Source of the DNA: Dehalococcoidia bacterium
Lineage (GTDB): Bacteria > Chloroflexota > Dehalococcoidia > Lucifugimonadales > CATOSD01
Reading direction: 5' to 3'
Assembly (NCBI GenBank): GCA_965206395.1
Contig: CBDBJK010000024.1
Coordinates: 1,979 to 25,978 of the forward strand
Length of the DNA: 24,000 nt
This document shows, in pieces, positions 193 to 15,792 of this stretch. Positions within the stretch are counted from its first letter, which is position 1. The number at the start of each line of letters is the position of its first letter. Below the pieces are notes generated by a model. That model worked only from the letters and a program-made list of their open reading frames with translations, did not search any database and had not been told where the DNA came from. Position numbers and translations under genes: made by a program.

Positions 193-1021
193 TATTTCCA
201 TCCCACCAACGAAGAATGGAGTGAGGAACGAGTGTAATAAGGTCTTGGGCACTTTAGGAATGATAAGTGTCGAATTGAGGGTACAAGCGGAACATCACAT
301 ACTTGCGCAAGCAAAAGGCCTGGCTGTTATTTCGGGGCGTTGTCATGGATATGGAGATAAATCAGACTCCTCCAGAGATACTTGGAACTTTTTGATGATG
401 CTCTCCGTCTTAATTATTGATGAGAAATCCATCCAAGCAGTCATAATTTGCCTATTTCCCACCTCAACTGAAGATTATCGTTGACTGTGCAAGAAAGTGA
501 TGCTAAGGTGTTCGCGCAACCCTGATTTTCCTCTCTGGTGACCTGATCGTGGAAACTTCCGCCAAGGCTTGACTATGAAAATCGGGACTTAAGCACGTCA
601 GAAAGACTTTACAAATGAGGTGCGAACATAGCAACTTATGTGCAAGCCCTTGAAGCAGTGCAGAAATATGGACTGCAAACGCTCTTGAACAGCAAGGGAG
701 TCCACGCGGTTGGCGTAGGTGTGAAGGATGACACTCCTTTCCGTTCAGCCAAGGGTAATGACTTCAGCGTTACGGCTGTAGTCAGTAACAAAAGAACTAT
801 CCGTGATTTGGCAGAAGAAAACATCCTCCCTTTTTCAGATGCATTCAAGAGAGACACAGCAAACACATCTGCCGAACCGGTAGAAATCAATGTTGTTGAG
901 TCAGGTGGGCCACCGCGATTGGAGATGTTGCTCGTACCAAAGATACAAAGAGGTCAATATGGAGGAAGGCGTCCTTTATTGGATACGCAGAAACGGTTCA
1001 ACTCCCTACGTTGCGGTATTA

Positions 1022-1839
1022 GGTTGTGTTGACATTTGGTGCATAATGGATACATGTCAACGACTGAATTACGCAATGAACAATGGTCGAAAATCCTTGA
1101 ATTTCTGCGCTCATGCCCAGACCTCTACGTTGGAGAGGAGGACGATTGCAGGCGCTACGTCGAGGCCATCCTGTGGATGGCACGAAGTGGTGCTCCTTGG
1201 AGACTGCTGCCTGAGCACTACGGTCACTGGAACAGCGTATATAAGCGCTTCGCACGCTGGTGTGAAAAGGGTGTATGGGAACGAATGCATCAGCATTTTG
1301 TGCAAGACCCCGATATGGAGCATGTCATCATTGATAGCACTGTGATAGCACTGTGGTTCGCGCTCATCCCTGTGCTGCTGGAGCCTCCAAAAAAACGGTG
1401 GCCAATCGGCCCAAGCTCTTGGCCGGAGCCGAGGCGGGTTCAGTACCAAGATCCACGTGAGCGTGGATGGATTGGGCAACCCGTTGCGCTTTGAGCTCAC
1501 AGCAGGTCAACGTCACGACATCACCCAGGCACAGGCATTGATAGCTGATTTCGAAACGAGCATGTGATTGCTGATAAGGGATACGATTCGATGGATTTTC
1601 TCCAATGCATCCTGGGCAGGGGCGCGTTACCTGTGATTCCACCTCGGTCAAATCGAAAGACGCCACGAGAGTATGATGAGTACCTTTACCGAGAGCGCCA
1701 CCTTGTGGAGTGTTTCATCAACAAGATCAAGCACTACCGGCATATCTTCTCTCGCTTTGACAAGCTGTCATCGCGTTTCCTGGGATTCTTGAACTTCGTC
1801 GGTGCTCTCATATGGCTCAGATGAAATGTCAACACAACC
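1022..1839 (+). mobile_element. 818-bp IS5-family insertion sequence (DUF4096 + DDE type), decayed copy, TA target duplication
   Basis: Perfect 16-bp terminal inverted repeats are GGTTGTGTTGACATTT (1022-1037) and AAATGTCAACACAACC (1824-1839). They are flanked by TA (1020-1021) and TA (1840-1841). The transposase stop overlaps the right IR. Confidence 0.85.
1054..1824 (+). pseudogene. IS5-family DDE transposase, multiply frameshifted
   Basis: The N-terminal part is MSTTELRNEQWSKILEFL...GAPWRLLPEHYGHWNSVYKRFARWCEKGVWERM...IDSTV. The middle part, in another frame, is NGGQSAQALGRSRGGFSTKIHVSVDGLGNPLRFELTAGQRHDITQA. The C-terminal part, back in the first frame, is HVIADKGYDS...IPPRSNRK...YRERHLVECFINKIKHYRHIFSRFDKL...ALIWLR*. 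Three frame changes are needed to read it. Confidence 0.8.
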
Positions 1840-2724
1840 TAGTATCTCATCTCCAAACGGGCATTATCCCAATATGTTGAGTGTAGGTACACTGGGTGCT
1901 TTTGCGCGAGACGATTTAAATGAGCTATATTTAATATCTAACAACCATGTCATCGCCCACTCAAATACGGGCGCCACGAGTGACCCCATAGTCCAAGTCA
2001 GAACGCTAGACCTAACGGAAATAGAAATGTCCCTTATGAGCGATACGCCTGCAGTTGCCAACACCCTGAAAATAGCGGAGCTTACTGACTTTGTCCCCAT
2101 TCAATTTCCGACGCCGCAGAATGTGCCCTTGAATAGAAGCGACACAGCAATCGCTAGACTAATCTCCAATGGTAGAGACACAGACGGGATTCACTGCCTA
2201 GCCTTCGCTGGCGCAATTATGGGGGTGGCTGACCCCATCGATGTAGACAATGATGGACACCCCAATGTACCGACTCGCGTGTACAAAATGGGACGAACCA
2301 CCGGACTAACCGAAGGCGAAGTGGATATGATCGGAGCGATTGTCCCGATACCGTATCCTCAAGGAGTCGCCTACTTTACCGATCAGATCATTGTCCACCC
2401 AACCGACGACAATGCAGGGCCTTTCAGTGACCAGGGTGATAGTGGAAGTATCGTCCTAGATGAACGACATCAAGTACTTGGACTGCTCTATGCCGGTAGT
2501 CCCAGAAGGACATTCATAAACCCAATAGAATTTGTCCTGGAAGACCTCAGTAATCAGATAAACAGGCCACTTACTTTGGTGACACTCTGAAAACCAAACC
2601 ATACGTTCGGGAATACCGTATAATATATAGGCAACTTCACCGGTGCCAATTCACGCATACAAAGTCTCCCACAGGATTGACCGCGCAAGCTGCTAAGCGC
2701 ATCCAAGTAATTAGAGGGTGACAA

Positions 2725-2979
2725 ATGGAAAATCAATTGACGCGCCGGAGAATACAGGAACTATTGAGATCACATACTCATGAGATAATGAAACAACTAG
2801 GTGATGAGGAAATCATAATCGGCATATCAATGTCTGATTCTAAAGCTTGTCTAAGTGTTTCGGTACTATCAGAGCGTGTATCCGAAATACCGCATTCAAT
2901 CACCATAATGACTGACGAAGGAGAAGTGGAGATTCCAGTCAAAGCAAAAGGAGACTACGAACCCATTCGTCTTCATTGA
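2725..2979 (+). CDS. Small hypothetical protein (84 aa) resembling the N-terminal domain of the adjacent protease
   Basis: An ATG is preceded by AGAGGGTG at good spacing. By eye, its pattern (helix, then IIIGISMSD, LSVSVL, IPHSI, VEIPVKAKGDYEP) parallels the protease N-terminus (VHAVGVGVKDD, FSVTAVV, LPFS, VEINVVESGGP). Confidence 0.5.
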   Translation: MENQLTRRRIQELLRSHTHEIMKQLGDEEIIIGISMSDSKACLSVSVLSERVSEIPHSITIMTDEGEVEIPVKAKGDYEPIRLH

Positions 2980-3042
2980 AGCTGTTCGACTCAAAGAACG
3001 AAACTGATAAGCTAGAGTCAATAACGGGATAAACGATGATAA

Positions 3043-3075
3043 AAGGGGTTCCAATGAGTTGCATTGGAACCCCTT
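3043..3075. terminator. Strong hairpin between convergent genes (bidirectional terminator candidate)
   Basis: AAGGGGTTCCAATG-agttg-CATTGGAACCCCTT forms a 14-bp perfect stem. On the minus strand it is followed by TTTATC. It lies between the small ORF (+) and the CoA-transferase (-). Confidence 0.6.
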
Positions 3076-3132
3076 ATGTGTTGGCATTTCCCCAGAGCTA
3101 TCAATGTCAGGCATAGCAACCCACATGAAAAA

Positions 3133-3144
3133 TTCTAGCGAAGG
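3133..3144. repeat. Right copy of the 12-bp direct repeat TTCTAGCGAAGG
   Basis: This is an exact copy of 181-192. It overlaps the last codons and stop (…L R *) of the minus-strand CoA-transferase gene. Confidence 0.5.
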
Positions 3145-4592
3145 CTCGCCTTTAGCGACTTGCGCAACTCACTGCGAAAGTCGGGATGGGCTATCGCAAT
3201 AAGAGCCTCGGCCCGCTCCCAGTGGTTCTTGTCTATCAAGCTGGCTAAGCCGTACTCGGTTACTATGGTGTCGGCAAAGAAACGGGGAATGGTTATCAAC
3301 GACCCCGCCTCCATCATGGGCACAATGCGGGAGACCGCACCACCCAACGCTGTGGAAAACAGGAGGGTGATTGCCCTACCACCCTTCGAGTACAGCGCGC
3401 CCATGTGAGTCTCGGGCTGACCGCCGATGCCGTTTATCATACGGGGGCCAAATACGCTCTCGGAGTTAATCTGCCCCGTCAAGTCCACGGATATGGCGTT
3501 GTTCATGCCTATCTGCCGTTCGTTCTGAGCGATAAGCATGGGGTTCAGCAGATACTCTGGGTCGTATAGCTCAAACAAGGGGTTGTCGTCGATGATGGAC
3601 ATCTCCTTGTCATCTGCGGACCTCCAGGAGACTGCAACCGCCTTGCCTTTATGAATGCTCTTGCGGCTTCCGTTAATCACGCCCGCTTCCACCAGCGGAA
3701 TTACTCCTGGCACGACCAGTTCCGTGTGCAGGCCCAGATCGACCCTATCGTCGAATATGCCCAACCTTGGCAGGTATACTGAAGGCGCGCCTACCCCGGT
3801 CTGGACGGTCGCGCCGTCTGGAATGAGACGCTTCACGTGTTCGGCGATGGCGTGCGCTTCTGGGGGCGGTTCCAGCAAGCCGAAACGGGTCTTGACGTCT
3901 TTCAAGTCAACGGTATCCAGACGCGGCACGATGGGGGCCAGTCGGCGCGGATTGACGTAGTTGATAATCTCCTCAAGCGCAGTCCGTCTCTCCACCGGGA
4001 AATCAGAAACAGCTTGCAAAAGCTCTTCCCTGGTCAGGGATGGGGGCGTCTCAACAAAATGGTCGAACATGGATATGGGCAAATAACAGTCGCCGCGTGC
4101 GCGGGCGAGCGAGGGGTCGACCTCGGCTATCACCTTCCGCGCCCGTTTCACGTAGCTACGCTTGTACCAGAGCTGCGGGCCAAACGAGACCAGACCATGC
4201 TTGTCTGGAGGAGTCACGGTCGTCATCACAACGTCAACAGGCTTTGCCTCGGAGGGGCGCTCATCCCCTACCTTGTGGCTTAACGAAAAGGGAAGCGGCA
4301 AGAATGGGGCGAGGCCGTCGTCATGAAACGGCCTCGCATTTGGGCCTATGAAGTTCTCGAACTCCACCTGGAAATTTCCTTCCTCGGAGGATAGGAACAG
4401 GTTCAGATCGAGTTCTGGGACCGAAATGGAGATGCTCACGCCTTGAAGCTCGTGCCTTCGGGCAGACAGGGCCTGGGCTAACTGGCGCGGCTGATCGGTA
4501 AGGGGAATGACTATTCTGTCACCATTCTCTACCAACCTGACCGCTTCTTCAGCCGAGACCAATTTGCGCTTGTATTCTTCCTGCCAGCTCAT
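3135..4592 (-). CDS. Acetyl-CoA hydrolase/transferase family protein (4-hydroxybutyrate CoA-transferase-like)
   Basis: This 485-aa ORF has the family's N- and C-terminal domain pattern (…GATVQTGVGAPS…, …ISVDLTGQINSE…, …GIGGQPE…). Coding is clean on the minus strand. Confidence 0.8.
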   Translation of the reverse strand: MSWQEEYKRKLVSAEEAVRLVENGDRIVIPLTDQPRQLAQALSARRHELQGVSISISVPELDLNLFLSSEEGNFQVEFENFIGPNARPFHDDGLAPFLPLPFSLSHKVGDERPSEAKPVDVVMTTVTPPDKHGLVSFGPQLWYKRSYVKRARKVIAEVDPSLARARGDCYLPISMFDHFVETPPSLTREELLQAVSDFPVERRTALEEIINYVNPRRLAPIVPRLDTVDLKDVKTRFGLLEPPPEAHAIAEHVKRLIPDGATVQTGVGAPSVYLPRLGIFDDRVDLGLHTELVVPGVIPLVEAGVINGSRKSIHKGKAVAVSWRSADDKEMSIIDDNPLFELYDPEYLLNPMLIAQNERQIGMNNAISVDLTGQINSESVFGPRMINGIGGQPETHMGALYSKGGRAITLLFSTALGGAVSRIVPMMEAGSLITIPRFFADTIVTEYGLASLIDKNHWERAEALIAIAHPDFRSELRKSLKASLR

Positions 4593-5381: not shown

Positions 5382-5448
5382 ATAGAACCCTTTCGTATCA
5401 GATGAACCTCAAGCGCGCCGCATTCGTGCGGCATTATTATCTTACTAA

Positions 5449-6329
5449 GAGCGTCTAACAAAACCATTATTGGAACAGAAAGCGAGAGCAGATGATGGCA
5501 CAACCTATGGCCAAGAAAGCCTCATGTATGTCTGCCCTGCGCTCATATCGAACCCGTAAGCGTCGGAACTGATGAAGCCAACTCAGGCTTCTCTCAACCA
5601 CCCATCTATGCACACCCAACCCGCTGCCATGCGGCTCACCTCGCTTGGCCAGCAGCGGCCAGATATGTCGCTTCTTCAACTCCTTGCGAACAGGCTCAGA
5701 GTCATACCCTCTGTCTCCCTGCGCCTGAAGAGGACGCTTGCGAGGCCTGCCTCGCTTGCCCTTGACAGCAGGTATGGCATCCACCAACTCAAGGGCTTGG
5801 GTGACATCGTGAGCGTTCGCGCCAGTCAACCTGACCGCCAGTGGAATGCCCTGGGCATCGGTTATGATATGATGCTTGCTACCCGCCTTCGCCCTGTCCG
5901 TGGGGTTGGGGCCTGTTTTCTGCCCCCAAAAACTGCTCGCACTGAAGCACTGTCCAGCACTGCGCGAGTCCAGTCTATGCGCTCAGCTGCTTGCAGGCGC
6001 TCAAGGCATACCAAGTGGATGCGCTCCCAGACTCCCCGACTGGTGCCAATCTCTGAGGCGCCTCCAGCAGGTCATCCCACTGCCACAGTCCATCTCCTTG
6101 GGTAGGTCTTCCCAGCCAATGCCTGTCTTTAGCACGAACAGTATCCCACTTAGGACCTGTCTGTCAGGTATCCTGGGCCTTCCTCCTTTCGGCTTCGGTG
6201 GTTGTGGCGGCAGTAAGGGTTGCACCAGTTCCCAGAATTCATCGCTTACAAGGGGCTTAGACATTAGGTCATCCTCCTCCAGAGAATGTCCAGATTCTAA
6301 CCCCTTTTATTAGGTTTTGTTAGACGCTC
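5449..6329 (-). mobile_element. 881-bp IS5-family IS (two-ORF, -1 frameshift type), copy 1, inverted relative to copy 2
   Basis: The 17-bp perfect terminal IRs are GAGCGTCTAACAAAACC (5449-5465) and GGTTTTGTTAGACGCTC (6313-6329). Flanks are TAA (5446-5448) and TTA (6330-6332). All translated frames match copy 2 except for one extra base. Confidence 0.9.
5467..6264 (-). pseudogene. IS5-family transposase, orfA frameshifted by a 1-bp homopolymer expansion
   Basis: orfA is MSKPLVSDEFWELVQPLLPP...DWHQSG, then goes out of frame (SLGAHPLGMP*). Copy 2 reads ...DWHQSGVWERIHLV. The C-run at 6034-6037 has 4 bases versus 3 in copy 2. orfB (5467-5829) is identical to copy 2. Confidence 0.85.
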
Positions 6330-6389
6330 TTAGAATCGTTAATTCCAGGGCTTAAAACAATGTTAGAGATTCAATTGGAGTCTACTGTA

Positions 6390-7271
6390 TCACACCCGCA
6401 GGCTTTGCTCGTCGGCGTAACGGGCGTCCTGCGCCAGCAAATCATCAAGCCCGACGATGTTGAAGCAGTCTTCCAGGCTGTCCATGCTGTCCATCATGTG
6501 CGCCGTCGTGCCCTTTTGCTTCAACTCTCGCATGAGGTTAGAGACGACTTTGGAGACCATCATGAAGGCGCTTCCGGGGAAGATGACCAGCTTGTATCCC
6601 ATGCTCTCTAGCTCTGATACGGACAGCAGAGGGGACTTCCCAGACTCCACGAAGTTGTAAAGCAGTGGAATGTCAAAGGTCTGCGCGACGCGCTCCGCCT
6701 CCTCCGGCGTTCGCAGGGCTTCGACGAACAGAACGTCGGCCCCAGCCTTGATGTAGGCCTCGCATCGAGACATGGTGTCGTCCCAGTCGGTGACGGCGAG
6801 GGCGTCTGTACGAACGATGATGACGAAATCGTCGTCTGTGCGCGCGTCCACGGCGGCGCGGATTTTCTGAACCATGTCGCCAACCGGTATCACGCGCTTG
6901 TTGTCCAGATGGCCGCAGCGCTTGGGCGATTCCTGGTCTTCGATGTGAATTGCGGCCACGCCAGCGCGTTCGTACTGCCGGACTGTGCGCTGCACGTTGA
7001 GCACGCCGCCATAGCCGGTATCGGCGTCCGCGATGACCGGCACGTCCACCGAACCGGCAATGGCGGCGGCGTTGGCGACCATCTCGGTCACGGAGGCAAG
7101 GCCGAGGTCCGCGTAGCCAAGCTGCGCAATCGACGTTCCCGCGCCAGTCATGTACACGGCCTGGAAGCCTTCGTTCTGAATGATTCTCGCCGTCAGGCAG
7201 TCGTAGGCTCCCGGCGCTACCGTAATCCCAGGCTCTTTAAGCATCTGCCGCAGTCGTGTCGTAGTTCGCAT
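6390..7271 (-). CDS. Isocitrate lyase/PEP mutase superfamily enzyme (2-methylisocitrate lyase / oxaloacetate decarboxylase-like)
   Basis: The 293-aa product carries the signature KRCGH (EDQESPKRCGHLD), plus PGAYDCLTARI and DADTGYG motifs typical of the ICL/PEPM family. Confidence 0.8.
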   Translation of the reverse strand: MRTTTRLRQMLKEPGITVAPGAYDCLTARIIQNEGFQAVYMTGAGTSIAQLGYADLGLASVTEMVANAAAIAGSVDVPVIADADTGYGGVLNVQRTVRQYERAGVAAIHIEDQESPKRCGHLDNKRVIPVGDMVQKIRAAVDARTDDDFVIIVRTDALAVTDWDDTMSRCEAYIKAGADVLFVEALRTPEEAERVAQTFDIPLLYNFVESGKSPLLSVSELESMGYKLVIFPGSAFMMVSKVVSNLMRELKQKGTTAHMMDSMDSLEDCFNIVGLDDLLAQDARYADEQSLRV

Positions 7272-7521
7272 TGTTTTCTCCTTAGTTGAGTGAAGTTCCC
7301 TGTATCAAAGTGTATACATAGATGGGCGAATTTTAGCACTGCCTACCAAGTCGGTCAAAGACTCTCATTTGGCAGTATGATTCGGCTCTCTTTCGTTTCG
7401 ATAAAGAACCCGATGCGATCTGTTCTGTCGTAATTGACAGCTATCGATGGCACTGTTAAACTCGCGCTCGTCGATTATGCCTGTTACTTAACCCCACAAC
7501 AGTTTTTAAGGAGAAAAGGTC

Positions 7522-8229
7522 ATGAACAACAACACGCAGCGTATTATAGCCACATTAGAGGAGTCTCTGGGATTGCCGCGCCCTCCTATTGGGCTTGCCT
7601 TCGTCGATGGGCCGCCTGCTGGCGTCGAAAAATCCGACACAGGCGTGCCGTCGGCCTGCTCCTTCTGGCGCATGGCGGAAAAGAGTGTCTTCTACGCCTC
7701 AGAGGAAGAACATCTCAACTGTCCAATCGGCGTTATGACGATGGGCTTTCAGATTCCAGAAGAGCGCCAGGCAGAAGCTCAGACCATCGTCGAAACCATG
7801 TGCGAGTTGGAGTACATCACGCCAGAGGAGGCGAGCGCGATTCCGTCGGTCCCTGGAGGACACAAAGGGATTGTCTACGGCCCTATATCCCAGATGCCCG
7901 TCGACCCCGATGTGGCCCTATTCTTTTGCAAACCCGCTCAGGCGATGCTTCTAGTAGAGGCATCGGATAGCGTCACGTGGACAGGAGCGGGCATGACTGC
8001 CTTTGGTCGGCCTACCTGTGCTGCAATTTCAATGGCTATCAAGAGCAGCAACGCCAGCGCAAGTATGGGGTGTATCGGATTTCGAGTTTACACAGGCATT
8101 CCTGATGAGGAGATGCTGATCGTGGTTCCTCGTCAGCAGCTTGAGATACTCGCTAGAAAAATGGACACCATCGTGTCCGCGAATGGCAGCCTGGAAGAGT
8201 TTCACACCCAACGACGCGCCCTCGTGTAG
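7522..8229 (+). CDS. DUF169 family protein
   Basis: The 235-aa ORF has an ATG preceded by AAGGAG. The pattern PIGLAF...CSFW...NCPIG...RPTCAA...MGCIG matches my memory of DUF169 (COG2043) proteins. Confidence 0.6.
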   Translation: MNNNTQRIIATLEESLGLPRPPIGLAFVDGPPAGVEKSDTGVPSACSFWRMAEKSVFYASEEEHLNCPIGVMTMGFQIPEERQAEAQTIVETMCELEYITPEEASAIPSVPGGHKGIVYGPISQMPVDPDVALFFCKPAQAMLLVEASDSVTWTGAGMTAFGRPTCAAISMAIKSSNASASMGCIGFRVYTGIPDEEMLIVVPRQQLEILARKMDTIVSANGSLEEFHTQRRALV

Positions 8230-8238
8230 ACTGGATTA

Positions 8239-9003
8239 CTATTGGCTTCCCCGAAGTTCGTCGAGGAAGCGGTGGTCTTCCTCGGAAAGCTGCGCCGATT
8301 CCAGCAGGTCGGGGCGGCGCAGAAATGTCCTGCGAAGCGACTCCCGCCGACGCCATCGGGCTATCTCCGCGTGGTTGCCGGAGAGAAGCATATCCGGCAC
8401 GGCCCAGCCTCGAAACTCGGCGGGACGGGTGTACTGCGGATGCTGAATCAGGCCGGTGGTGAACGAGTCGTCCTGCGTCGATTCCAAGGAACCGACGACG
8501 CCCGGCACAAGCCGCGACACGGCGTCGATGACGACCATCGCCGCAAGCTCGCCACCGCTGAGAACGTAGTCGCCTATGCTAATCTCGTCCGTCGCCAGAT
8601 GCTCGCGCACACGCTCGTCTACGCCTTCGTAGCGTCCACAGATTAGCACCAGGTCGCTATGCGCTGAAAGCTCCTCCACGACCTTCTGCGTCAGAGTTCG
8701 GCCTTGAGGCGAGAGCAGAATTACGGGTGTGTCATCGTCCAGACGGGCGGAAGCGCGAACCGAGTCTACGGCCTCAAACAGGGGTTCCGGCTTCATCAGC
8801 ATGCCTGGTTCGCCACCGAAAGGGTAGTCGTCTACCTTCCTGTGGCGGTCGTGTGCGTGGTCACGGATGTCGTAGGTTTTAACATCGACCAGGCCGTTTT
8901 GAATTCCACGGGCGACGATGCTCTCGGCGAAAGGACTTACGAACATCGCCGGAAAGATCGTCACGACGTGAAATCGCGTACGTAGGTTCAGTGTGTCCGC
9001 CAT
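8239..9003 (-). CDS. trmD: tRNA (guanine37-N1)-methyltransferase
   Basis: Motifs are [70 protein letters not shown] and [11 protein letters not shown]. Its start overlaps the mogA stop by 16 nt. It is not in the usual rpsP-rimM-trmD-rplS context. Confidence 0.95.
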
Positions 9004-9485
9004 CCCTTGACCATCTCCAGCGCATGGGCTATGGCCGGAACCGCAACCTCAAGGGTCTCTCGAACTGCCTTTGGACTGCCTGGCAGGTTGATGATGAGGC
9101 ATCCAGACCTCACACCGGCCACGGAGCGGCTGAGCATAGCCAACGGCGTGTTCTTCAGCGTTTCGATCCGCATGGCTTCCGCTATTCCGGGCGCTTCGAT
9201 GTCGATAACGGCCCTCGTAGCTTCCGGGGTAACATCCCTGGGGCCAAGGCCAGTGCCGCCTGTAGTCAGTACAAGATCGACCTTTCCGCCGTCGCTCCAT
9301 TCGCGGAGCTTTTCGGATATAATATCTTTTTCGTCTGGAACGATATCACGAAGCACCTGCTCCAAACCTTCACGTTCCATAATTTCGCTTATGGTGTCGC
9401 CACTGGTGTCAGCCCGCTCTCCCTTAGAGCCAGCGTCGCTTATGGTAAGTATTGCTAGTTTGAAAATGGTTCGCCTCCTTCTCAA
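8988..9485 (-). CDS. mogA: Molybdenum cofactor biosynthesis protein, MogA/MoaB family
   Basis: Motifs are KLAILTISD...[21 protein letters not shown]...[22 protein letters not shown]. The track start is TTG 9485, but a strong AAGGAGG (9480-9474) sits 6 nt before ATT 9467-9465. The true start may therefore be the ATT. Confidence 0.85.
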
Positions 9486-9737
9486 ACAAGGGCAAGGGTT
9501 GATGCAGACAGACCGACCCTGAAAACACCTCGGAAAAATAGGGCTAATTCACCTTGCATGGGTCGGGCTACCTCTGTGACACTCGCAAAGAATGTTGTGG
9601 GTTCATACGCTCGAAGCCATCCTATACTACCATGATTGGATGGTCGGAGCCTATGTCGTTGGTCTGCTCAACGCAGAATGCCGAGGGTTAGGCTGGCGTA
9701 ATTGCGAAGGATTGGGGGGTGGCCCTCTTAGGAAGCG

Positions 9738-10661
9738 TTGGAAGTACGCCACACACCCGTAATGGCGCAGGAGGTTATCTCCGCCCTCGAAATCAAACCT
9801 CTTGGGACGTTTGTAGATTGCAACGTTGGGGAGGGTGGGCATTCTCTGGCGATTTTGAGCGCCGTTACCCCAGGGCCGCATCTCCTTGGAATAGACCTGG
9901 ATGCCGAATCGCTCATCGTGGCGCGGCGGCGGCTGGAAGCATACCAGGACACTGTTGTCCTGGTGCAGGGGAATTTCGCGGACGTGGGCACTATCGCCGA
10001 GGAACACGGCTTCAAGCCCGCAGACGGCATTCTCTTCGACCTTGGCCTGTCCTCGCTGCAAGTGGACACCGGCAGCAGGGGTTTCAGCTTTCGCCACGAG
10101 GCACGGCTCGATATGCGGTTTGACCCGGGCCAGGAAACGACCGCTTATAACGTGGTGAATGAGTATTCCGAGGAATCGCTGGCTGACGTTATTTTCTGGA
10201 TGGGCGAAGAGCGGAGAGCGAGAAGGGTAGCGCGGGCCATCGTTCGAAGGCGTCCGATAGAGACGACGACCCAATTGGCGGATGTGGTAACACGTGCTCT
10301 GGGTCGGCCTGCAAGGGGACGAATTCATCCTGCTACGCGAACGTTTCAAGCAATCAGAATGGCCGTCAACAAGGAGTTGGAAAATCTGGAGCGTGGCCTT
10401 GAACAGGCCCTGGAACTGTTACGCTCAGGCGGGCGTGTCGCGGTGATTAGCTATCATTCGCTTGAGGACAGGCTGGTGAAAAACAAGCTGCGGCACGAGG
10501 CGTCGGATTGCATATGTCCACCGGAAACGCCGATATGTATATGTGGCCATAAGGCCAGTATCAGGCTGATCAATCGGAAAGTGATAAAACCAACGCAGGC
10601 CGAGGTTCAGGCCAACCCTCGGAGCAGAAGCGCCCGTATGCGAGTGGCAGAGCGGATCTGA
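9738..10661 (+). CDS. rsmH: 16S rRNA (cytosine1402-N4)-methyltransferase
   Basis: Motifs are HTPVM..EV, FVDCNVGEGGHS, GILFDLGLSSLQVD, RGFSF and ISYHSLEDR. The start is TTG 9738 and an in-frame stop lies just upstream. No mraZ precedes it. Confidence 0.95.
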   Translation: MEVRHTPVMAQEVISALEIKPLGTFVDCNVGEGGHSLAILSAVTPGPHLLGIDLDAESLIVARRRLEAYQDTVVLVQGNFADVGTIAEEHGFKPADGILFDLGLSSLQVDTGSRGFSFRHEARLDMRFDPGQETTAYNVVNEYSEESLADVIFWMGEERRARRVARAIVRRRPIETTTQLADVVTRALGRPARGRIHPATRTFQAIRMAVNKELENLERGLEQALELLRSGGRVAVISYHSLEDRLVKNKLRHEASDCICPPETPICICGHKASIRLINRKVIKPTQAEVQANPRSRSARMRVAERI

Positions 10662-10722
10662 ATGCTATGGCAATGATGACAACGGCGGAAGTGTACACTC
10701 CGTTTTCAGAGGAACCAATATT

Positions 10723-11976
10723 ATGGCAGACGCAACGATAATAGCTGCGATAGACGTAGGCACAACGAAAATTTGCACTATCGTCTGCAAGAAAACCGGG
10801 CCGACAAACCTTCAGGTGCTGGCATATAGCGTCGTACCGTGCGATGGCCTCAAGAAAGGGAACGTCGCGGATGCTGCGGCAACGGAGGCGGCGATTCGAG
10901 CTTCCATCTCTGAGGTGGAGCATAAAGCAGGGCTTAGTATTCAGTCCGTCTACGTCGGCGTTACCGGCACGCACGTTGCTTTCGAGAACCGTTCGGATAC
11001 CCTGAATTGGGCCGGTGAGCGTGGCGTCATAACTAACGAAGACCTTGAGCGGGTTCCTCAAAAGGTTGCTGCCGAGAGCCAGGCGTCCGGGCGCAAGGTA
11101 ATTCACGCCATTCCGATGTCCTACTCTTTAGACGGTAAGGAGGGCATCAGAAGCCCGCTGGGAATGCACACCAATCAGTTAAAGGTCGAAACCCATGTCG
11201 TGACGGGGGCCTCTTATATTGTTAACAGCCTCGTGGATGCTGTAGAGAGGGCCGGAGTTAGAATAGAGTCGCTCGTGTTGGAGCCGCTGGCGAGCAGCCT
11301 GGCGGTACTGACACAAGAGGAAAGGGAGCAGGGAGTCGTGCTGATAGACATCGGCGGTGGCACGACCGATGTGGTTGTATTCAAGAGGGGGAATATCCAG
11401 TATACCTCTGTCTTGCCTATAGGTGGCTATCAGTTCACGAACGATATTTCACTCACTTACGACACCACTTACTACGCAGCAGAGGAAGCAAAGCTCAAGT
11501 ATGCTCACACCGAGATGAACGATGTCCATCCAAATGATGAGATTTCCTTGCCGGTTGTCGGCAGATCGACTGAGCTTAAAGTGCCACTACGGGATATTCG
11601 CCAGCTAACGCGCGAGCGCGCCCGGGAGTTGGTGCGTCTGATCAAGCTGAAACTGGAAGACGCAGGCATTGAGGACATCTCCAGCATGCAGCTTGTCATC
11701 ACCGGCGGGGCGTCTGTTTTGCCAGGGCTAAAGGAGCTAATCCAGCGAACTCTCACTCTTCACGTGCGCATCGGCGTGCCCGATGGTGGCGGGGATTTGC
11801 CAGACGAGCTTAAAGCCCCCGCATTCGCGACCAGCACGGGAATCCTTCTGTGGGCCGCAGCACAACACAGGCCAGAGACAACCAGAGCGACCAACGGGGC
11901 AAGCAACGGCACTAAGAACGGAGGCGGTGGAGTCGTTTCCCGGTTTGCCAGACAAGTCAGAGGGTTGTTGTCCTGA
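10723..11976 (+). CDS. ftsA: Cell division protein FtsA
   Basis: The actin-fold motifs are IAAIDVGTTKICTIV, DIGGGTTDVVVF and ITGGASVLPGL. The C-terminal tail GGVVSRFARQVRGLLS is a candidate amphipathic membrane-targeting helix. Confidence 0.95.
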   Translation: MADATIIAAIDVGTTKICTIVCKKTGPTNLQVLAYSVVPCDGLKKGNVADAAATEAAIRASISEVEHKAGLSIQSVYVGVTGTHVAFENRSDTLNWAGERGVITNEDLERVPQKVAAESQASGRKVIHAIPMSYSLDGKEGIRSPLGMHTNQLKVETHVVTGASYIVNSLVDAVERAGVRIESLVLEPLASSLAVLTQEEREQGVVLIDIGGGTTDVVVFKRGNIQYTSVLPIGGYQFTNDISLTYDTTYYAAEEAKLKYAHTEMNDVHPNDEISLPVVGRSTELKVPLRDIRQLTRERARELVRLIKLKLEDAGIEDISSMQLVITGGASVLPGLKELIQRTLTLHVRIGVPDGGGDLPDELKAPAFATSTGILLWAAAQHRPETTRATNGASNGTKNGGGGVVSRFARQVRGLLS

Positions 11977-12089
11977 ATAGTATTTGTAAATCTGAAAAGT
12001 ATATCTTTATCACCCTCAAAAGCGAGGGTTTGAATTGCCGAATAGAAGTCCGAAAGCAAATTTCCTAGAAACTGGAGAGGGAGGAGTCA

Positions 12090-13190
12090 ATGGCCGTCAC
12101 CAACAGAGACCCCGATGGAGTCGCACGGATTAAGGTAGTAGGCGTAGGCGGTGGAGGCTCGAACGCCGTCTCAAGGATGTTCAGGGAGCGCATGCCTGGC
12201 GTGGAGTATATGGTGGTGAACACCGATGCCCAGGCCCTGATGCGGTGCGACGTGCCCTTGAAGATTCGAGTCGGGGACCAGCTCACCGGCGGTAAAGGCG
12301 TAGGAGGCAACCCAGACCTGGGTATGCGCTCCGCCGAGGAAAGCAGAGAAGAGCTGTATGAGGCCATGCGCGACTCCGACATGGTGTTCGTCGCAGCAGG
12401 TATGGGCGGAGGCACTGGCACGGGCGCGGCACCAGTCGCGGCCCAGATGGCCAAAGAAACGGGCGCACTGACTGTTGGGGTAGTAACCCGGCCGTTCAGC
12501 TTCGAAGGTCTGCGGCGCGCTCAGGTAGCCGAAGAAGGCATCAAACGCTTGAGGGAGCATGTCGATACGCTTCTGGTCATCCCTAATGAGCGTCTCCACG
12601 TCATCTGCGAAGAGGAGATCACCGCCGAGAACGCCTTCAGGATGGCTGACGATGTTCTTCGTATGGGTGTGCAGTCTATCGCGGAGCTTGTGACCGTGCC
12701 GGGCGAGATCAACCTGGACTTCGCCGACATACAGGCAATCATGCGAGATGCTGGCCCTGCGTGGATGTCCATCGGCTTCGGCGTCGGCGAACACAGGGCA
12801 AGGGAGGCGGCGCAGCGTGCCATCACCAACCCATTGCTCGATGTGTCCATCGAAGGGGCTAGCGGCGTGCTGTTCAACATCACCGGGGGCAGCGACCTCA
12901 AGCTGTCGGAGTTGCACGAGGCCGCCGAAGTCATCCAGCGAGTCGTCGAGCCTGACGCCAACATCATCTTCGGCATGGTCACCGACCTGAAGCTGGAGAA
13001 CGAAATCAAGCTCACGATTATCGCTACTGGCTTCCCCACTACCGAGAATATTCAGGAGCGAGAAGACAACGTCGCCCAGATGCTGCGAGAAGCCCTCACC
13101 AGCGACGAGGCACAGCTTGACCTGCCGCCGTTCCTTCGCAGGCACACCAAGGCGCGTAAGGTAGACCCCTCTCAGATCAACACGCACTAA
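12090..13190 (+). CDS. ftsZ: Cell division GTPase FtsZ
   Basis: Motifs are IKVVGVGGGGSNAV, NTDAQAL, the tubulin signature GMGGGTGTGAAPV, and the C-terminal conserved peptide DLPPFLRR. The RBS is GGAGAGGGAGGAG. Confidence 0.97.
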   Translation: MAVTNRDPDGVARIKVVGVGGGGSNAVSRMFRERMPGVEYMVVNTDAQALMRCDVPLKIRVGDQLTGGKGVGGNPDLGMRSAEESREELYEAMRDSDMVFVAAGMGGGTGTGAAPVAAQMAKETGALTVGVVTRPFSFEGLRRAQVAEEGIKRLREHVDTLLVIPNERLHVICEEEITAENAFRMADDVLRMGVQSIAELVTVPGEINLDFADIQAIMRDAGPAWMSIGFGVGEHRAREAAQRAITNPLLDVSIEGASGVLFNITGGSDLKLSELHEAAEVIQRVVEPDANIIFGMVTDLKLENEIKLTIIATGFPTTENIQEREDNVAQMLREALTSDEAQLDLPPFLRRHTKARKVDPSQINTH

Positions 13191-13229: not shown

Positions 13230-13262
13230 AACGGGGCCGCCAATTAAGGCGGCCCCGTTTAA
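13230..13262 (+). terminator. Hairpin terminator candidate downstream of ftsZ
   Basis: AACGGGGCCGCC-aattaa-GGCGGCCCCGTT forms a 12-bp GC-rich stem followed by TAATAA. The U-tract is weak. Confidence 0.55.
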
Positions 13263-13613
13263 TAAGTGGTCATAAGGACACTGGTGCAGGTAACACCGGC
13301 GTCCCCGCCTTTATTTAGTACCATCTATTACCCCTCCGCGCCTGTATCAAGGTAAAAAGTGCATTTTCACCGTCAATTAGCAAGCAGTGTTGTGCGTATA
13401 CCCTGACTGAATTATTACTACTGAACCAAAAGTGTCAGAACAGGCGTACCTATAGTGGGATTCCACCGCAAGAATCAGTGGCAAAAGCCCGAAAACGAGA
13501 CTAAGAAACCATAGACATACGGTTATCAACACTGTATCTTACTGTCGTAAGACAGCATGAAGGGATATTGGCGAGCATAGTTCGACCCTCCCACCTATCT
13601 GGGCTTAAAAGTT

Positions 13614-13702
13614 TGGTGGGGACGGAGGGATTCGAACCCTCAATCCGCATACGCGGCAGCTACTTCACAGGTAGCCGTGAATGCCAATTCCACCACGTCC
13701 CC
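13614..13702 (-). tRNA. Class-II (long variable arm) tRNA with a Leu-like D-arm, A73, encoded CCA and anticodon GTG
   Basis: Hand fold: GGGGACG|TG|GTG-GAATTGGCATT-CAC|G|GCTAC-CTGTGAA-GTAGC|TGCCGCGTATGCGGATT|GAGGG-TTCGAAT-CCCTC|CGTCCCC|A|CCA. All stems are Watson-Crick. T8, A14, G18G19, T54T55C56 and A58 are present. Confidence 0.85.
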
Positions 13703-13719
13703 GAATGTTGTTAATGGCG

Positions 13720-13804
13720 TGCCCAGGGCGGGATTCGAACCCGCACGGTTGGAATAACCACCGGAGTCACAATCCGGCGTGTCTGCCAATTCCACCACCT
13801 GGGC
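13720..13804 (-). tRNA. Class-II tRNA with a tRNA-Leu-type body and anticodon GTG (A73, no directly encoded CCA in the 7-bp fold)
   Basis: Hand fold: GCCCAGG|TG|GTG-GAATTGGCAGA-CAC|G|CCGGA-TTGTGAC-TCCGG|TGGTTATTCCAACCGT|GCGGG-TTCGAAT-CCCGC|CCTGGGC|A. An alternative 9-bp acceptor (GTGCCCAGG/CCTGGGCAC) followed by G-CCA would extend it to 13715-13806. Confidence 0.8.
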
Positions 13805-13962
13805 ACTTTTTTATGTGGCGACTTAGGCCACGCTATTACTATTACCACCTTTCTTCTAGCAACGTATAGCGACTTTCCACGCTCTTTTCTAGCACTAATG
13901 TCAATCCATATCAATGCACTTTGGGCACCTAGAAATACGGGTTTCTGCTTAGGAGGTACTTA

Positions 13963-14842
13963 GAGCGTCTAACAAAACCTAATAAAAGGGGTTAGAATCT
14001 GGACATTCTCTGGAGGAGGATGACCTAATGTCTAAGCCCCTTGTAAGCGATGAATTCTGGGAACTGGTGCAACCTTTACTGCCGCCACAACCACCGAAGC
14101 CGAAAGGAGGAAGGCCCAGGATACCTGACAGACAGGTCCTAAGTGGGATACTGTTCGTGCTAAAGACAGGCATTGGCTGGGAAGACCTACCCAAGGAGAT
14201 GGACTGTGGCAGTGGGATGACCTGCTGGAGGCGCCTCAGAGATTGGCACCAGTCGGGAGTCTGGGAGCGCATCCACTTGGTATGCCTTGAGCGCCTGCAA
14301 GCAGCTGAGCGCATAGACTGGACTCGCGCAGTGCTGGACAGTGCTTCAGTGCGAGCAGTTTTTGGGGGCAGAAAACAGGCCCCAACCCCACGGACAGGGC
14401 GAAGGCGGGTAGCAAGCATCATATCATAACCGATGCCCAGGGCATTCCACTGGCGGTCAGGTTGACTGGCGCGAACGCTCACGATGTCACCCAAGCCCTT
14501 GAGTTGGTGGATGCCATACCTGCTGTCAAGGGCAAGCGAGGCAGGCCTCGCAAGCGTCCTCTTCAGGCGCAGGGAGACAGAGGGTATGACTCTGAGCCTG
14601 TTCGCAAGGAGTTGAAGAAGCGACATATCTGGCCGCTGCTGGCCAAGCGAGGTGAGCCGCATGGCAGCGGGTTGGGTGTGCATAGATGGGTGGTTGAGAG
14701 AAGCCTGAGTTGGCTTCATCAGTTCCGACGCTTACGGGTTCGATATGAGCGCAGGGCAGACATACATGAGGCTTTCTTGGCCATAGGTTGTGCCATCATC
14801 TGCTCTCGCTTTCTGTTCCAATAATGGTTTTGTTAGACGCTC
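13963..14842 (+). mobile_element. 880-bp IS5-family IS (two-ORF, -1 frameshift type), copy 2, apparently intact
   Basis: The 17-bp perfect IRs are GAGCGTCTAACAAAACC (13963-13979) and GGTTTTGTTAGACGCTC (14826-14842). It is flanked by a TTA/TTA 3-bp direct repeat (13960-13962 and 14843-14845). Confidence 0.9.
14028..14824 (+). CDS. IS5-family transposase, orfA (14028-14429) fused to orfB by a putative -1 frameshift near 14359-14369
   Basis: orfA has a DUF4096-like N-terminus (…GRPRIPDRQVLSGILFVLKTGIGWEDLP…CWRRLRDWHQSGVWERI…). The -1 frame continues GGQKTGPNPTDRAKAGSKHHIITDAQGIPLAVRLTGANAHD...GDRGYDS...RWVVERSLSWLHQFRRLRVRYERR, which is the DDE domain. Confidence 0.85.
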
Positions 14843-14849
14843 TTAGAAC

Positions 14850-15234: not shown

Positions 15235-15792
15235 ATGCATTGCCCGTTTTGCACTAACGACGACTCGAAGGTAATCGACTCCCGTGACACCGGCGAAAGC
15301 ATCCGGCGCAGGCGCGAATGCCTCCGGTGCGGGTTGAGATTTACCACGTACGAGCGCGTTCAAACGAGGTCGCTGCTTATAATCAAGCGCGACGGGCGGC
15401 GGGAAGAGTTCAACCGCGACAAGCTCTGGTCGAGCCTGACCACTGCCTGCGCCAAGAGACCATTGCCCATCGGCAGCATCGAGAAGGTGATAGACGAGAT
15501 AGAGACGCAGCTTTCCAACCTGGGCCGGGCCGAGATACCATCCAAAACCATCGGCGAGATGGTGATGGACAGGCTCAAGGGCCTTGACCGCGTGGCCTAC
15601 ATACGCTTCGCAAGCGTCTACCGCGACTTCAGAGACATAGAGAGCTTCAAGGAAGAGATAGAAGCCCTGCTGGAACCTCACGGGGCCGTCGTCGACGACA
15701 ACCAGCTTACTTTTCTGGAAGACGATGACCTGCCCGCCACGCCCCGTCGTCGGGGTCGGAGGCCCAACAAGCCTCAATCAGACCCCGCGTAG
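15235..15792 (+). CDS. nrdR: Transcriptional repressor NrdR (zinc ribbon + ATP-cone)
   Basis: It begins MHCPFC...DSKVIDSR...RRRRECLRCGLRFTTYE, followed by an ATP-cone (IIKRDGRREEFNRDKL...). It has an unusually long acidic/basic C-terminal tail. Confidence 0.95.
   Translation: MHCPFCTNDDSKVIDSRDTGESIRRRRECLRCGLRFTTYERVQTRSLLIIKRDGRREEFNRDKLWSSLTTACAKRPLPIGSIEKVIDEIETQLSNLGRAEIPSKTIGEMVMDRLKGLDRVAYIRFASVYRDFRDIESFKEEIEALLEPHGAVVDDNQLTFLEDDDLPATPRRRGRRPNKPQSDPA

Follow-up and report, generated by a model that had tools for sequence, protein, structure and literature searches.

Leucine-type tRNAs carrying histidine anticodons in an uncultured Dehalococcoidia bacterium

Can a bacterial tRNA with the body of a leucine tRNA carry the anticodon of histidine, and, if so, does it alter the genetic code of its host? 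This question is raised by two tandem minus-strand genes in a 24,000-nt stretch of DNA (hereafter the window; contig CBDBJK010000024.1, positions 1,979 to 25,978, assembly GCA_965206395.1) from an uncultured Dehalococcoidia bacterium. An earlier sequence-only reading described them as Leu-like class-II tRNAs with GUG anticodons, and that observation is confirmed here. They are strain-variable, horizontally acquired passengers related to a tRNA carried inside an IS1-type transposon, and are most likely accessory mis-decoding or non-translational tRNAs rather than signs of a changed genetic code.

Anatomy of the two genes

ARAGORN calls two tRNAs in the region, c[13614,13702] and c[13719,13804], both with anticodon gtg at position 35. 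The Rfam tRNA covariance model aligns both end to end, with scores of 59.7 and 55.8 bits against a gathering score of 29, and places UUGUGAC and CUGUGAA in the 7-nt anticodon loop, so that the assignment of GUG to positions 34-36 does not depend on folding by hand. The first gene, tRNA-A (13720-13804, minus strand; 59.7 bits), is an 85-nt class-II tRNA with a fully paired acceptor stem (7/7; GCCCAGG/CCUGGGC), A73, U at position -1, the tail CGC in place of an encoded CCA, the anticodon arm CCGGA-UUGUGAC-UCCGG and a 16-nt variable region with a 4-bp stem. The second, tRNA-B (13614-13702, minus strand; 55.8 bits), is an 86-nt class-II tRNA followed by an encoded CCA, with a fully paired acceptor stem (7/7; GGGGACG/CGUCCCC), A73, C at position -1, the anticodon arm GCUAC-CUGUGAA-GUAGC and a 17-nt variable region, again with a 4-bp stem. 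The Leu-type D-arm GUGGUGGAAUUGGCA, the 3-bp D stem and the UUCGAAU T-loop are as the sequence-only reading had described them. The two genes are separated by a 17-nt spacer (13703-13719), and their tandem, same-strand arrangement suggests a single transcript, although co-transcription is inferred.

The genes are divergent paralogs, identical at 57 of 81 positions. When tRNA-A, tRNA-B and the homolog L022 (described below) are compared, 100% of 69 pair cells are standard pairs and 14 of 23 pairs show changes on both sides, a result reached by 0 of 500 shuffles, whereas slid registers give 39-49% pairing. The sequences are identical in three independent assemblies (the window and those of strains L002 and L003), making sequencing or assembly error very unlikely, and the search pattern built from the two genes has 0 expected chance matches in the window.

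The body of each tRNA is of the leucine type. The best BLAST matches in 50,697 phage genomes that carry an annotation are all tRNA-Leu; in 5,424 of 5,426 E. coli genomes the matching feature in all eight listed records is tRNA-Leu, a search that returned matches at E ≤ 10 but none at E ≤ 0.01 because of the size of the database. Nearest-neighbor typing against tRNAs from the pattern-selected loci was uninformative, as that reference set was biased toward the same D-arm. The E. coli leucine identity set, which comprises A73, the A15-U48 pair, G18G19 and A20a and does not require the anticodon (PMC9976931), is present in both genes, as are A14 and intact D/T-loop tertiary pairs, read from GGAAUUGGCA in the D-loop, the U preceding the T-stem and GGUUCGAAUCC in the T-arm. 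The leucine anticodon (NAG/NAA), needed for decoding but not for charging, is absent. The anticodon arm, conversely, is of the histidine type: that of tRNA-A is identical to the arm of a phage tRNA-His (L010), and both genes carry A37 rather than the G37 of CUN-reading tRNA-Leu, so that they are not simple A35U point mutants of tRNA-Leu(GAG). Compared with bacterial tRNA-Leu such as E. coli tRNA-Leu GAG, the acceptor stem (GCCCAGG versus GCCGAGG), A73, D-arm and class-II variable arm are shared, while the anticodon, position 37 and the His-like anticodon stem differ. Of three features of a canonical bacterial tRNA-His, only the GUG anticodon in a 7-nt loop is present; the encoded G-1 pairing with C73 and the short class-I variable loop are both lacking.

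Genomic setting and the mobile-element link

The pair lies between ftsZ (12090-13190, plus strand) and nrdR (15235-15792, plus strand), in an insert rich in insertion sequences. A perfect 12-bp hairpin after ftsZ (13230-13259, plus strand) is probably the ftsZ terminator, a role that is inferred, and the acquired segment starts somewhere after it. An IS5-family insertion sequence with 24-nt terminal inverted repeats (IRs) occupies 13956-14849 (plus strand), its transposase in two frames (DUF4096 at 14028-14429 and DDE_Tnp_1 at 14462-14824), and a second copy lies at 5445-6333. Among 80 Dehalococcoidia relatives, 57 have ftsZ directly followed by nrdR, mostly 200-600 bp apart, and none of the 80 loci contains a tRNA. 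A pattern scan of 185,579 species genomes returned 0 hits, and exact-protein look-ups of the window's FtsZ and of the protein P0001 found nothing. A lineage-wide tRNA-His of unusual shape was rejected on the absence of a tRNA from these loci, the lack of pattern hits in the species genomes and the loss of the pair in strain L001, which is 99.7% identical but carries a recombinant A/B hybrid with only 3 of 7 acceptor pairs, in which ARAGORN finds no tRNA. The same strain lacks a 94-nt stretch downstream of tRNA-B (13440-13533) that is part of the strain-variable insert. The pair therefore appears dispensable, although this rests on a single contig.

The only other A73/GUG homolog found, L022, is 69/81 identical to tRNA-A and lies inside an IS1-family transposon, between IRs GGTAGTGGGTCAGTTTGA at 6697 and 9513-9530, with a perfect 8-bp target duplication AACCTGGC; the element also holds a ParE toxin and an IS1 transposase. 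Six IS1-family elements from viral contigs and two distinct elements from the nearest relatives (three loci) carry a tRNA 70-180 nt upstream of the transposase (115-180 nt in the nearest relatives), and where both IRs were found the tRNA lies between them. This placement holds for L022 and for the elements L177, L193, L198, L216, L232, L251 and L253, whereas in L237 only the left repeat was found. The IR of this type of IS1-family element reads GGTAGTG(G/T)NTCAGTTTGA. The tRNA varies as a cassette together with the preceding 160-190-aa ORF, and other odd tRNAs occupy the same slot, among them that of L193, a Leu-like A73 ochre suppressor with anticodon UUA whose acceptor and T-arm nearly match those of tRNA-A.

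In the window itself, a search beside the pair found no IS1-type inverted repeat, transposase remnant or decayed third tRNA, and its transposon origin is thus inferred from L022 and from an IS1 element inserted next to it in strains L002 and L003. There, an internally deleted IS1-family element of 1,545 bp (IR GGTAGTGGTTCAGTTTGAA) is inserted 66 nt upstream of tRNA-A with an 8-bp duplication of the site CGACTTTC, which is empty in the window (13870-13877). A 327-aa ORF next to the tRNAs in L002 was first considered as a functional partner, but its homologs in the loci L164 (between phage terminase and portal), L168, L169 and L170 have no tRNA nearby, and it proved to be a passenger of this separate element. 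Element-specific recoding of CAY to Leu was likewise rejected: the ORF has 14 His, its invariant His residues are His in all 17 aligned sequences, and its variable His positions align mostly to Tyr, Asn or Met in homologs and only sporadically to Leu. PADLOC and PHROGs gave nothing for the adjacent ORFs, and only an OLD/AriA-like ATPase lies outside the L022 transposon, such that no link to a defense system was shown.

The interpretation offered by the sequence-only reading is partly supported by these data. Its anatomy (a Leu-type class-II body, A73, no G-1, GUG in both genes and divergent paralogs), its argument against wholesale reassignment and, strongly, its guess that the genes are accessory and horizontally acquired are borne out, but the link to IS1-family transposons carrying such tRNAs as cargo was not recognized. 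The excisionase remnant it placed beside the genes was not found. The promoter-like TTGCTA-N18-TAATAG it proposed is present (13833-13862, minus strand) but weak, ends 29 rather than about 20 nt upstream of tRNA-A, and was not called by a consensus promoter scan. Its statement that no class-II tRNA uses GUG holds for the 185,579 species genomes scanned but not for phage tRNA arrays, where dozens of tRNA-His genes with G-1/C73 use the same D-arm, which is thus not exclusive to tRNA-Leu, and five of these also have long variable arms. Its inference that GUG has been kept twice is weaker than it sounds, because L022 was found with a pattern that required TGTGA and only the comparison of tRNA-A with tRNA-B is unbiased.

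Charging, decoding and alternative explanations

The best explanation, held at a probability of roughly 0.5, is that the two genes are intact, structurally maintained mosaics of a bacterial tRNA-Leu scaffold (acceptor stem, A73, D-arm, long variable arm) and a tRNA-His-type anticodon arm (U33-GUG-A37) that lie outside the host's core translation set, in a horizontally acquired insert in the otherwise conserved ftsZ-nrdR spacer of one Dehalococcoidia species. In this view they belong to a rare family whose other known member is cargo of an IS1-family transposon, in a transposon family that repeatedly carries tRNAs whose body and anticodon do not match. If transcribed and processed, they would be charged by LeuRS, which reads A73 and the D/T-loop tertiary elements and ignores the anticodon, and would then compete at CAC/CAU codons with the host's own tRNA-His (itself inferred from L001 and from relatives rather than seen), causing low-level His-to-Leu missense decoding without reassigning the codons. 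The structure, the mosaic sequence, the accessory status, the mobile-element link and the reading of CAY as His in core genes are shown by the analysis, whereas expression, leucylation and use on the ribosome are inferred only. The leucine identity rules come from E. coli and a few other organisms, not from Chloroflexota, and a constitutively expressed His-to-Leu tRNA should be harmful, which argues for silence, tight control or a role outside translation. In addition, comparable irregular tRNAs were charged in vitro but did not decode in E. coli (Mukai et al., 2017; PMC5389517).

A possible, though less likely, alternative is that the tRNAs are stranded cargo not used in translation, either as unexpressed or uncharged relics of a decayed transposon or as tRNA-shaped RNAs whose role belonged to the mobile element, for example as an RNase P/Z processing signal upstream of the transposase or a partner of the variable ORF next to it. 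The fixed slot and cassette-like variation of the tRNA in IS1-family elements, the absence of transposase and IRs from the window, the loss of the pair in one strain and the lack of a clear promoter favor this view. Against it, both genes keep perfect cloverleaves, all conserved tertiary nucleotides, a canonical 7-nt anticodon loop with U33 and A37 and, in tRNA-B, an encoded CCA; they are only 70% identical to each other with compensatory differences and are identical in three strains, whereas a pure relic would be expected to show stem damage, as the L001 hybrid does.

It is doubtful that the genes are genuine extra tRNA-His genes, charged by HisRS through the anticodon and A73 as in the alpha-proteobacterial system or supplied with G-1 after transcription by a Thg1-like enzyme that recognizes GUG. 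The anticodon arm is His-like, class-II bodies with this D-arm serve as the His slot in phage tRNA clusters when they carry G-1/C73, Caulobacter HisRS needs no G-1 and reads the anticodon, A73 and U72 (PMC3064791), and tRNA-His with A73 and no G-1 occurs in alpha-proteobacteria and their phages (PMC5389517). However, G-1 and C73 are absent, position 72 is C rather than U, the host is not an alpha-proteobacterium, the architecture is absent from all scanned genomes, including many Dehalococcoidia, and the pair is dispensable; the acceptor stem, A73 and D-arm make the tRNAs good predicted LeuRS substrates, so that identity would at best be dual.

A more speculative and unlikely extension of the mobile-element link is that a subfamily of IS1 transposons spreads functional tRNAs with mismatched bodies and anticodons, including Leu-type bodies reading His codons (GUG) or ochre stop codons (UUA) and a class-I body reading AGY, each as a cassette with a fast-evolving coiled-coil/winged-helix-like protein. 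On this reading a transposon can install missense or nonsense suppression in a new host, and the window's pair would be a retained, active copy causing regulated His-to-Leu decoding in a Dehalococcoidia population.

Charging by TyrRS, with insertion of Tyr at His codons, is very unlikely: A73, G34, U35 and a long variable arm overlap the E. coli tyrosine identity set and the tRNA-B loop CUGUGAA is one base from CUGUAAA, but the D-arm and acceptor stem are Leu-type, position 36 is G rather than A, and no annotated match is a tRNA-Tyr. Finally, reassignment or ambiguous decoding of CAY as a fixed trait of the lineage, or a sequencing artifact, is suggested only by the existence of the two genes and is effectively refuted by CAY at 14 conserved His positions in PdxA, MraW and an ICL-family enzyme, by the lack of a consistent His-to-Leu pattern in the neighboring mobile ORF family, by the absence of the pair from relatives and its loss in one strain, and by the identical sequence in three assemblies.

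Relation to other mismatched tRNAs

Natural tRNAs whose charging identity and anticodon disagree are rare, with allo-tRNAs, tRNAProX and nev-tRNAs as known examples. The allo-tRNAs and "polycistrons of irregular tRNAs" (Mukai et al., 2017; PMC5389517) are likewise bacterial or phage tRNAs with long variable arms and mismatched body and anticodon, found in metagenomes next to transposon-related genes and toxin-antitoxin systems, sometimes in tandem, and in both cases some members may not be used in translation; here, IS elements are adjacent in the window and the L022 homolog lies inside an IS1 transposon with ParE. They have 8/4 or 9/3 acceptor/T-stem geometry and serine identity, whereas the tRNAs described here have the canonical 7/5 geometry, fully paired, and a leucine-type body; a Leu/His combination is not reported in that paper. 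The nev-tRNAs of nematodes are class-II, Leu-type tRNAs with non-Leu anticodons (Gly CCC, Ile UAU) that LeuRS charges with leucine in vitro (PMC3333845, PMC4300185), and represent the closest functional analogy, but they are eukaryotic nuclear genes conserved across nematodes, are not on mobile elements and use different anticodons. The tRNAProX (ProA/ProN/ProT) of Streptomyces and Kitasatospora are natural bacterial tRNAs of dual or mismatched identity that cause deliberate missense decoding, with a class-I proline body and Ala, Asn or Thr anticodons (PMC11415595). They are also paired with a dedicated ProRS paralog, while no dedicated synthetase is seen here. The alpha-proteobacterial tRNA-His, recognized by a divergent HisRS (PMC3064791), likewise has A73 and no G-1, with recognition driven by the anticodon, but is class I with U72, whereas the tRNAs here are class II with C72 in a chloroflexotal host. 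The phage-cluster tRNA-His genes identified in this analysis share the D-arm GUGGYGGAAUUGGUAGACRC and the GUG anticodon arm, and five have 14-18-nt variable arms, but they carry G-1, C73 and a His-type acceptor stem (GUGG...) and sit in full phage tRNA arrays; they therefore satisfy the canonical histidine identity rule, which the window tRNAs do not.

In the literature searched and read, no report of a bacterial leucine-scaffold tRNA with a histidine anticodon was found. Mismatched tRNAs are the raw material both for genetic-code change and for engineered orthogonal or mistranslating tRNAs. The window's tRNAs, the IS1-transposon cargo tRNA and the phage tRNA-His genes with G-1/C73 share one D-arm and anticodon-arm design, and together form a natural series in which acceptor end, variable arm and anticodon arm have been recombined, making Leu-to-His identity switching directly testable. 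If the tRNAs are inactive, the result still guards against over-reading anticodon-based "tRNA-His" calls in metagenome annotation; if the transposon-borne tRNAs are active, mobile elements can move decoding changes between hosts.

Structure and identity elements of the two tRNA genes

The report of two tandem minus-strand tRNA genes with the histidine anticodon GUG, made by the sequence-only reading, holds. ARAGORN finds exactly two tRNAs in the 24-kb window, both on the minus strand, at 13614-13702 and 13719-13804, and both with anticodon GTG. The Rfam tRNA covariance model aligns both from model position 1 to 71, with scores of 59.7 and 55.8 bits against a gathering score of 29, places UUGUGAC and CUGUGAA in the seven-base anticodon loop, and treats 13-14 bases as a variable-arm insertion. 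The upstream gene is referred to here as tRNA-A (13804-13720) and the downstream gene as tRNA-B (13702-13617, plus an encoded CCA to 13614). Parsing anchored on the D-loop and T-loop shows that tRNA-A has U at position -1, 7 of 7 acceptor pairs, A at position 73, a 3' tail reading CGC, and a variable region of 16 nt, while tRNA-B has C at position -1, 7 of 7 acceptor pairs, A at position 73, an encoded CCA tail, and a variable region of 17 nt. The two genes are 57/81 identical, and the same two sequences occur unchanged in two other assemblies of near-identical strains (L002 and L003), making a sequencing error in the GTG triplets very unlikely.

To assess whether the genes are maintained as tRNAs, tRNA-A, tRNA-B and the one metagenomic homolog that shares A73 (L022) were aligned and the cloverleaf was scored. 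All 69 pair cells are standard pairs, 14 of 23 pairs show changes on both sides, none of 500 column shuffles reaches any of these measures, and sliding the 3' partners by one to three columns drops pairing to 39-49%. The GUG of L022 is present by ascertainment, since this homolog was found with a pattern that required TGTGA, and only the comparison of tRNA-A with tRNA-B is therefore an unbiased sign that GUG is kept. The invariant columns include U8, A14, G18G19, U33, GUG, A37, the T-loop and A73.

The body of both genes is tRNA-Leu-like. In 50,697 annotated phage genomes, every match that carries an annotation is tRNA-Leu, with matches covering up to the full length of either gene at 75-79% identity. 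tRNA-A matches 5,424 of 5,426 complete E. coli genomes, and in all eight records listed, which were sampled evenly across the ranking, the feature under the match is tRNA-Leu, the first 28 nt being 93% identical. The acceptor stem GCCCAGG...A73 differs by one base from that of E. coli tRNA-Leu(GAG). The E. coli leucine identity set summarised by Giegé and Eriani (PMC9976931), which consists of A73, the A15-U48 pair, G18G19 and A20a and requires neither the anticodon nor the long arm, is present in both genes. The anticodon arm, conversely, is tRNA-His-like. The arm CCGGA-UUGUGAC-UCCGG of tRNA-A is identical to that of a phage tRNA-His (L010), and is close to that of E. coli tRNA-His. Position 37 is A, as in His and Gln tRNAs, whereas CUN-reading Leu tRNAs have G37. 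The two genes are thus mosaics and not single-base A35U mutants of tRNA-Leu(GAG).

Distribution, genomic setting and host decoding

A pattern built from the Leu-like D-arm, the GUG loop and the T-loop returned no hit in 185,579 species-representative genomes, 59 stretches in metagenome records, and 18 hits in viral contigs. Almost all of the 45 distinct hit sequences are tRNA-His genes inside phage tRNA arrays (among loci L007-L083, with L010 and L008 as class-I examples) that have G-1, C73, a His-type acceptor stem and a short variable loop, but the same tRNA-Leu-type D-arm (GUGGYGGAAUUGGUAGACRC). Five also have variable arms of 14-18 nt (L013/L050, L015, L039, L040/L053, and L078), and the arm of L013 (UGCCCGAAAGGGCUU) resembles that of E. 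coli tRNA-Leu(GAG). The "Leu" D-arm, and even a long arm, can therefore go with canonical histidine identity in phages. Two otherwise identical phage tRNA-His genes, L040/L053 and L044/L072, differ by a tandem duplication of 11 nt (GGTTTTACTGC) in the variable region that changes it from 7 nt to 18 nt, which is a one-step route from a short to a long variable region. Only one hit, L022, has the design of the window's genes, with C at -1, A73, a 17-nt variable arm and the anticodon arm CCGGG-UUGUGAC-CCCGG, and it is 69/81 identical to tRNA-A.

FtsZ places the window in uncultured Dehalococcoidia (Chloroflexota), the best species representative being 87% identical. The neighbourhood is core chromosome, comprising trmD, mraW, ftsA and ftsZ, then the tRNAs, followed by nrdR, ribonucleotide reductase, pdxA and proC. 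At 9738-13190, mraW is followed directly by ftsA and ftsZ with no ftsL, ftsI or mur genes between them, a reduced division cluster that fits Dehalococcoidia, many of which are reported to lack peptidoglycan genes. In 57 of 80 relatives, ftsZ is followed directly by nrdR, mostly 200-600 bp away, and ARAGORN finds no tRNA in any of the 80 loci. In the window the ftsZ-nrdR gap is 2,045 bp and holds the tRNA pair plus an IS5-family element (13956-14849) that has a second copy at 5445-6333. These two copies of an 889-bp element lie in opposite orientation, and each has 24-nt inverted repeats and a transposase split into a DUF4096 frame and a DDE_Tnp_1 frame, which suggests a programmed frameshift. 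Strains L002 and L003 carry a further 1,545 bp, 66 nt upstream of tRNA-A. A fourth strain, L001, which is about 99.7% identical, has a single hybrid gene at about 8483-8567 on the minus strand, corresponding to window 13614-13804, in which the 5' part of tRNA-A is fused at the shared D-arm to the rest of tRNA-B. Only 3 of the 7 acceptor pairs of this hybrid can form, ARAGORN calls nothing there, and the same strain lacks window 13440-13533. The pair is therefore acquired, strain-variable and dispensable, and it is inferred that the host has its own tRNA-His elsewhere.

Translated with the standard code, the proteins of the window align to solved structures with His opposite His at conserved motifs, namely 8 positions in PdxA (among them YHDQGH and DHGTAFD), 4 positions in MraW, and 2 positions in the ICL-family enzyme (including KRCGH). 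The possibility that the mobile ORF beside the tRNAs in L002 (7319-8302, minus strand; 327 aa with 14 His) uses CAY for Leu was also examined and rejected, as its invariant His residues are His in all 17 aligned sequences and its variable His positions align mostly to Tyr, Asn or Met in homologs and only sporadically to Leu. This ORF belongs to a small unannotated protein family of ~330 aa (homologs P0001-P0026; L164 3740-4780; L170 6001-6978) with three invariant Cys residues (C35, C56 and C59), the last two forming a CxxC motif, invariant THFWY and THW motifs, and no Pfam, PADLOC or PHROG hit. It travels as a passenger of an IS1-family element, and in L164 it sits between a phage terminase and portal gene.

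Association with IS1-family transposons

The extra 1,545 bp in L002 and L003 is an internally deleted IS1-family element with terminal repeats GGTAGTGGTTCAGTTTGAA and an 8-bp target duplication CGACTTTC, for which the window shows the empty site at 13870-13877. A full copy of this element sits next to rpoBC in locus L170. In L022 the related element is complete (6697-9530), with repeats at 6697 and 9513-9530 and a perfect 8-bp duplication AACCTGGC on both flanks. Between the repeats, all on one strand, are a 105-aa ORF, a ParE toxin, an 80-aa ORF, a 188-aa ORF, the class-II tRNA(GUG) and the transposase, so that in L022 the tRNA is transposon cargo. An OLD/AriA/GajA-like ATPase-Toprim defence protein (L022 3367-5295) lies about 1.4 kb outside this transposon, which thus sits in a defence-island-like neighbourhood. 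In the window itself, no IS1-type repeat or transposase remnant was found around the pair, and its transposon origin is therefore an inference.

A scan of 80 viral loci that encode this transposase family showed that six have a tRNA 70-180 nt upstream of the transposase on the same strand; in five of them the tRNA lies between both repeats, while in L237 only the left repeat was found. L193 (3518-4840) is a 1,323-bp IS whose only cargo is a Leu-like, A73, class-II tRNA with anticodon UUA, an ochre suppressor; L216 (2947-4852) has a class-II tRNA with anticodon GUA and G73; L237 (from 3090) has a tandem pair; and L198 (2451-5565) has a 74-nt class-I tRNA with the serine anticodon GCU. Among the closest relatives of the L022 transposase, L251 (95% identity; 1015-3256) and L253/L254 (L253 1183-4358) also carry a tRNA in that slot, and L252 does not. 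Homology between L022 and L251 covers the small ORF and the transposase but not the middle ORF plus tRNA, which behave as a variable cassette. All of these tRNAs score 53-63 bits with the Rfam model. The L193 tRNA shares its acceptor stem and T-arm almost exactly with tRNA-A, and GUG and UUA are both U35 versions of the leucine anticodons GAG and UAA.

These loci, with L232 564-2214 and L177 938-4680 among them, represent a subfamily of IS1-family transposons (IR GGTAGTG(G/T)NTCAGTTTGA, 8-bp target duplication) that carries a tRNA gene in a fixed slot 70-180 nt upstream of the transposase. The anticodon often does not fit the body, as in the Leu-like bodies with UUA (ochre) or GUG, the class-I body with GCU, and the class-II body with G73 and GUA. 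In the closest relatives, the tRNA and the preceding 160-190-aa coiled-coil/winged-helix-like ORF vary together as a cassette between a conserved ~80-aa ORF and the transposase. At L182 4841-4937, one IS1-family element ends 3 nt from an outside tRNA-Pro(CGG) gene on the opposite strand, which, together with the insertion 66 nt upstream of tRNA-A in L002 and L003, hints that the family tends to land next to tRNA genes.

Predicted charging and relation to described tRNAs

The closest described systems are the allo-tRNAs and irregular tRNA polycistrons (Mukai et al., 2017), which have mismatched identity and anticodon, lie near transposon genes and toxin-antitoxin systems, and are sometimes charged but not decoding; the nematode nev-tRNAs, class-II tRNAs with Gly or Ile anticodons that are charged with Leu; and tRNAProX of Streptomyces. 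The tRNAs described here lack the 8/4 or 9/3 geometry that defines allo-tRNAs, are bacterial and not nematode, and have no dedicated synthetase nearby. The papers searched and read report no bacterial Leu-bodied tRNA with a His anticodon and no IS1 elements carrying tRNAs, although this is absence from the literature consulted and not proof of absence.

The most likely reading, to which a probability of roughly 0.5 is assigned, is that these are accessory mis-decoding tRNAs. The analysis establishes two well-formed tRNAs with a leucine-type charging surface and a histidine-reading anticodon loop in acquired, dispensable DNA, whereas their transcription, processing, charging and use in decoding are inferred. 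If they are transcribed and processed, LeuRS should charge them, because bacterial LeuRS uses A73 and the D/T-loop hinge and ignores the anticodon (PMC9976931), and they would then insert Leu at CAC/CAU in competition with the host's tRNA-His. A less likely but still possible alternative is that they are cargo not used in translation, either a relic or an element-related RNA. Genuine histidine charging, either driven by the anticodon and A73 as in Caulobacter (PMC3064791) or following G-1 addition, is unlikely, and tyrosine charging is more doubtful still. Codon reassignment or an artefact can be all but dismissed.

The interpretation offered by the sequence-only reading is partly supported, in that its anatomy is right and the cautious options it listed, namely a special-purpose or ambiguous decoder of accessory origin, point the right way. 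To this the present analysis adds the demonstration that the pair is accessory and dispensable, its mosaic Leu-body/His-arm nature, the phage tRNA-His relatives with the same D-arm, and the IS1-family transposon vehicle, the last being inferred for the window's own pair. The pair is real and rare, though any function remains a prediction from sequence, and there is no change of genetic code.
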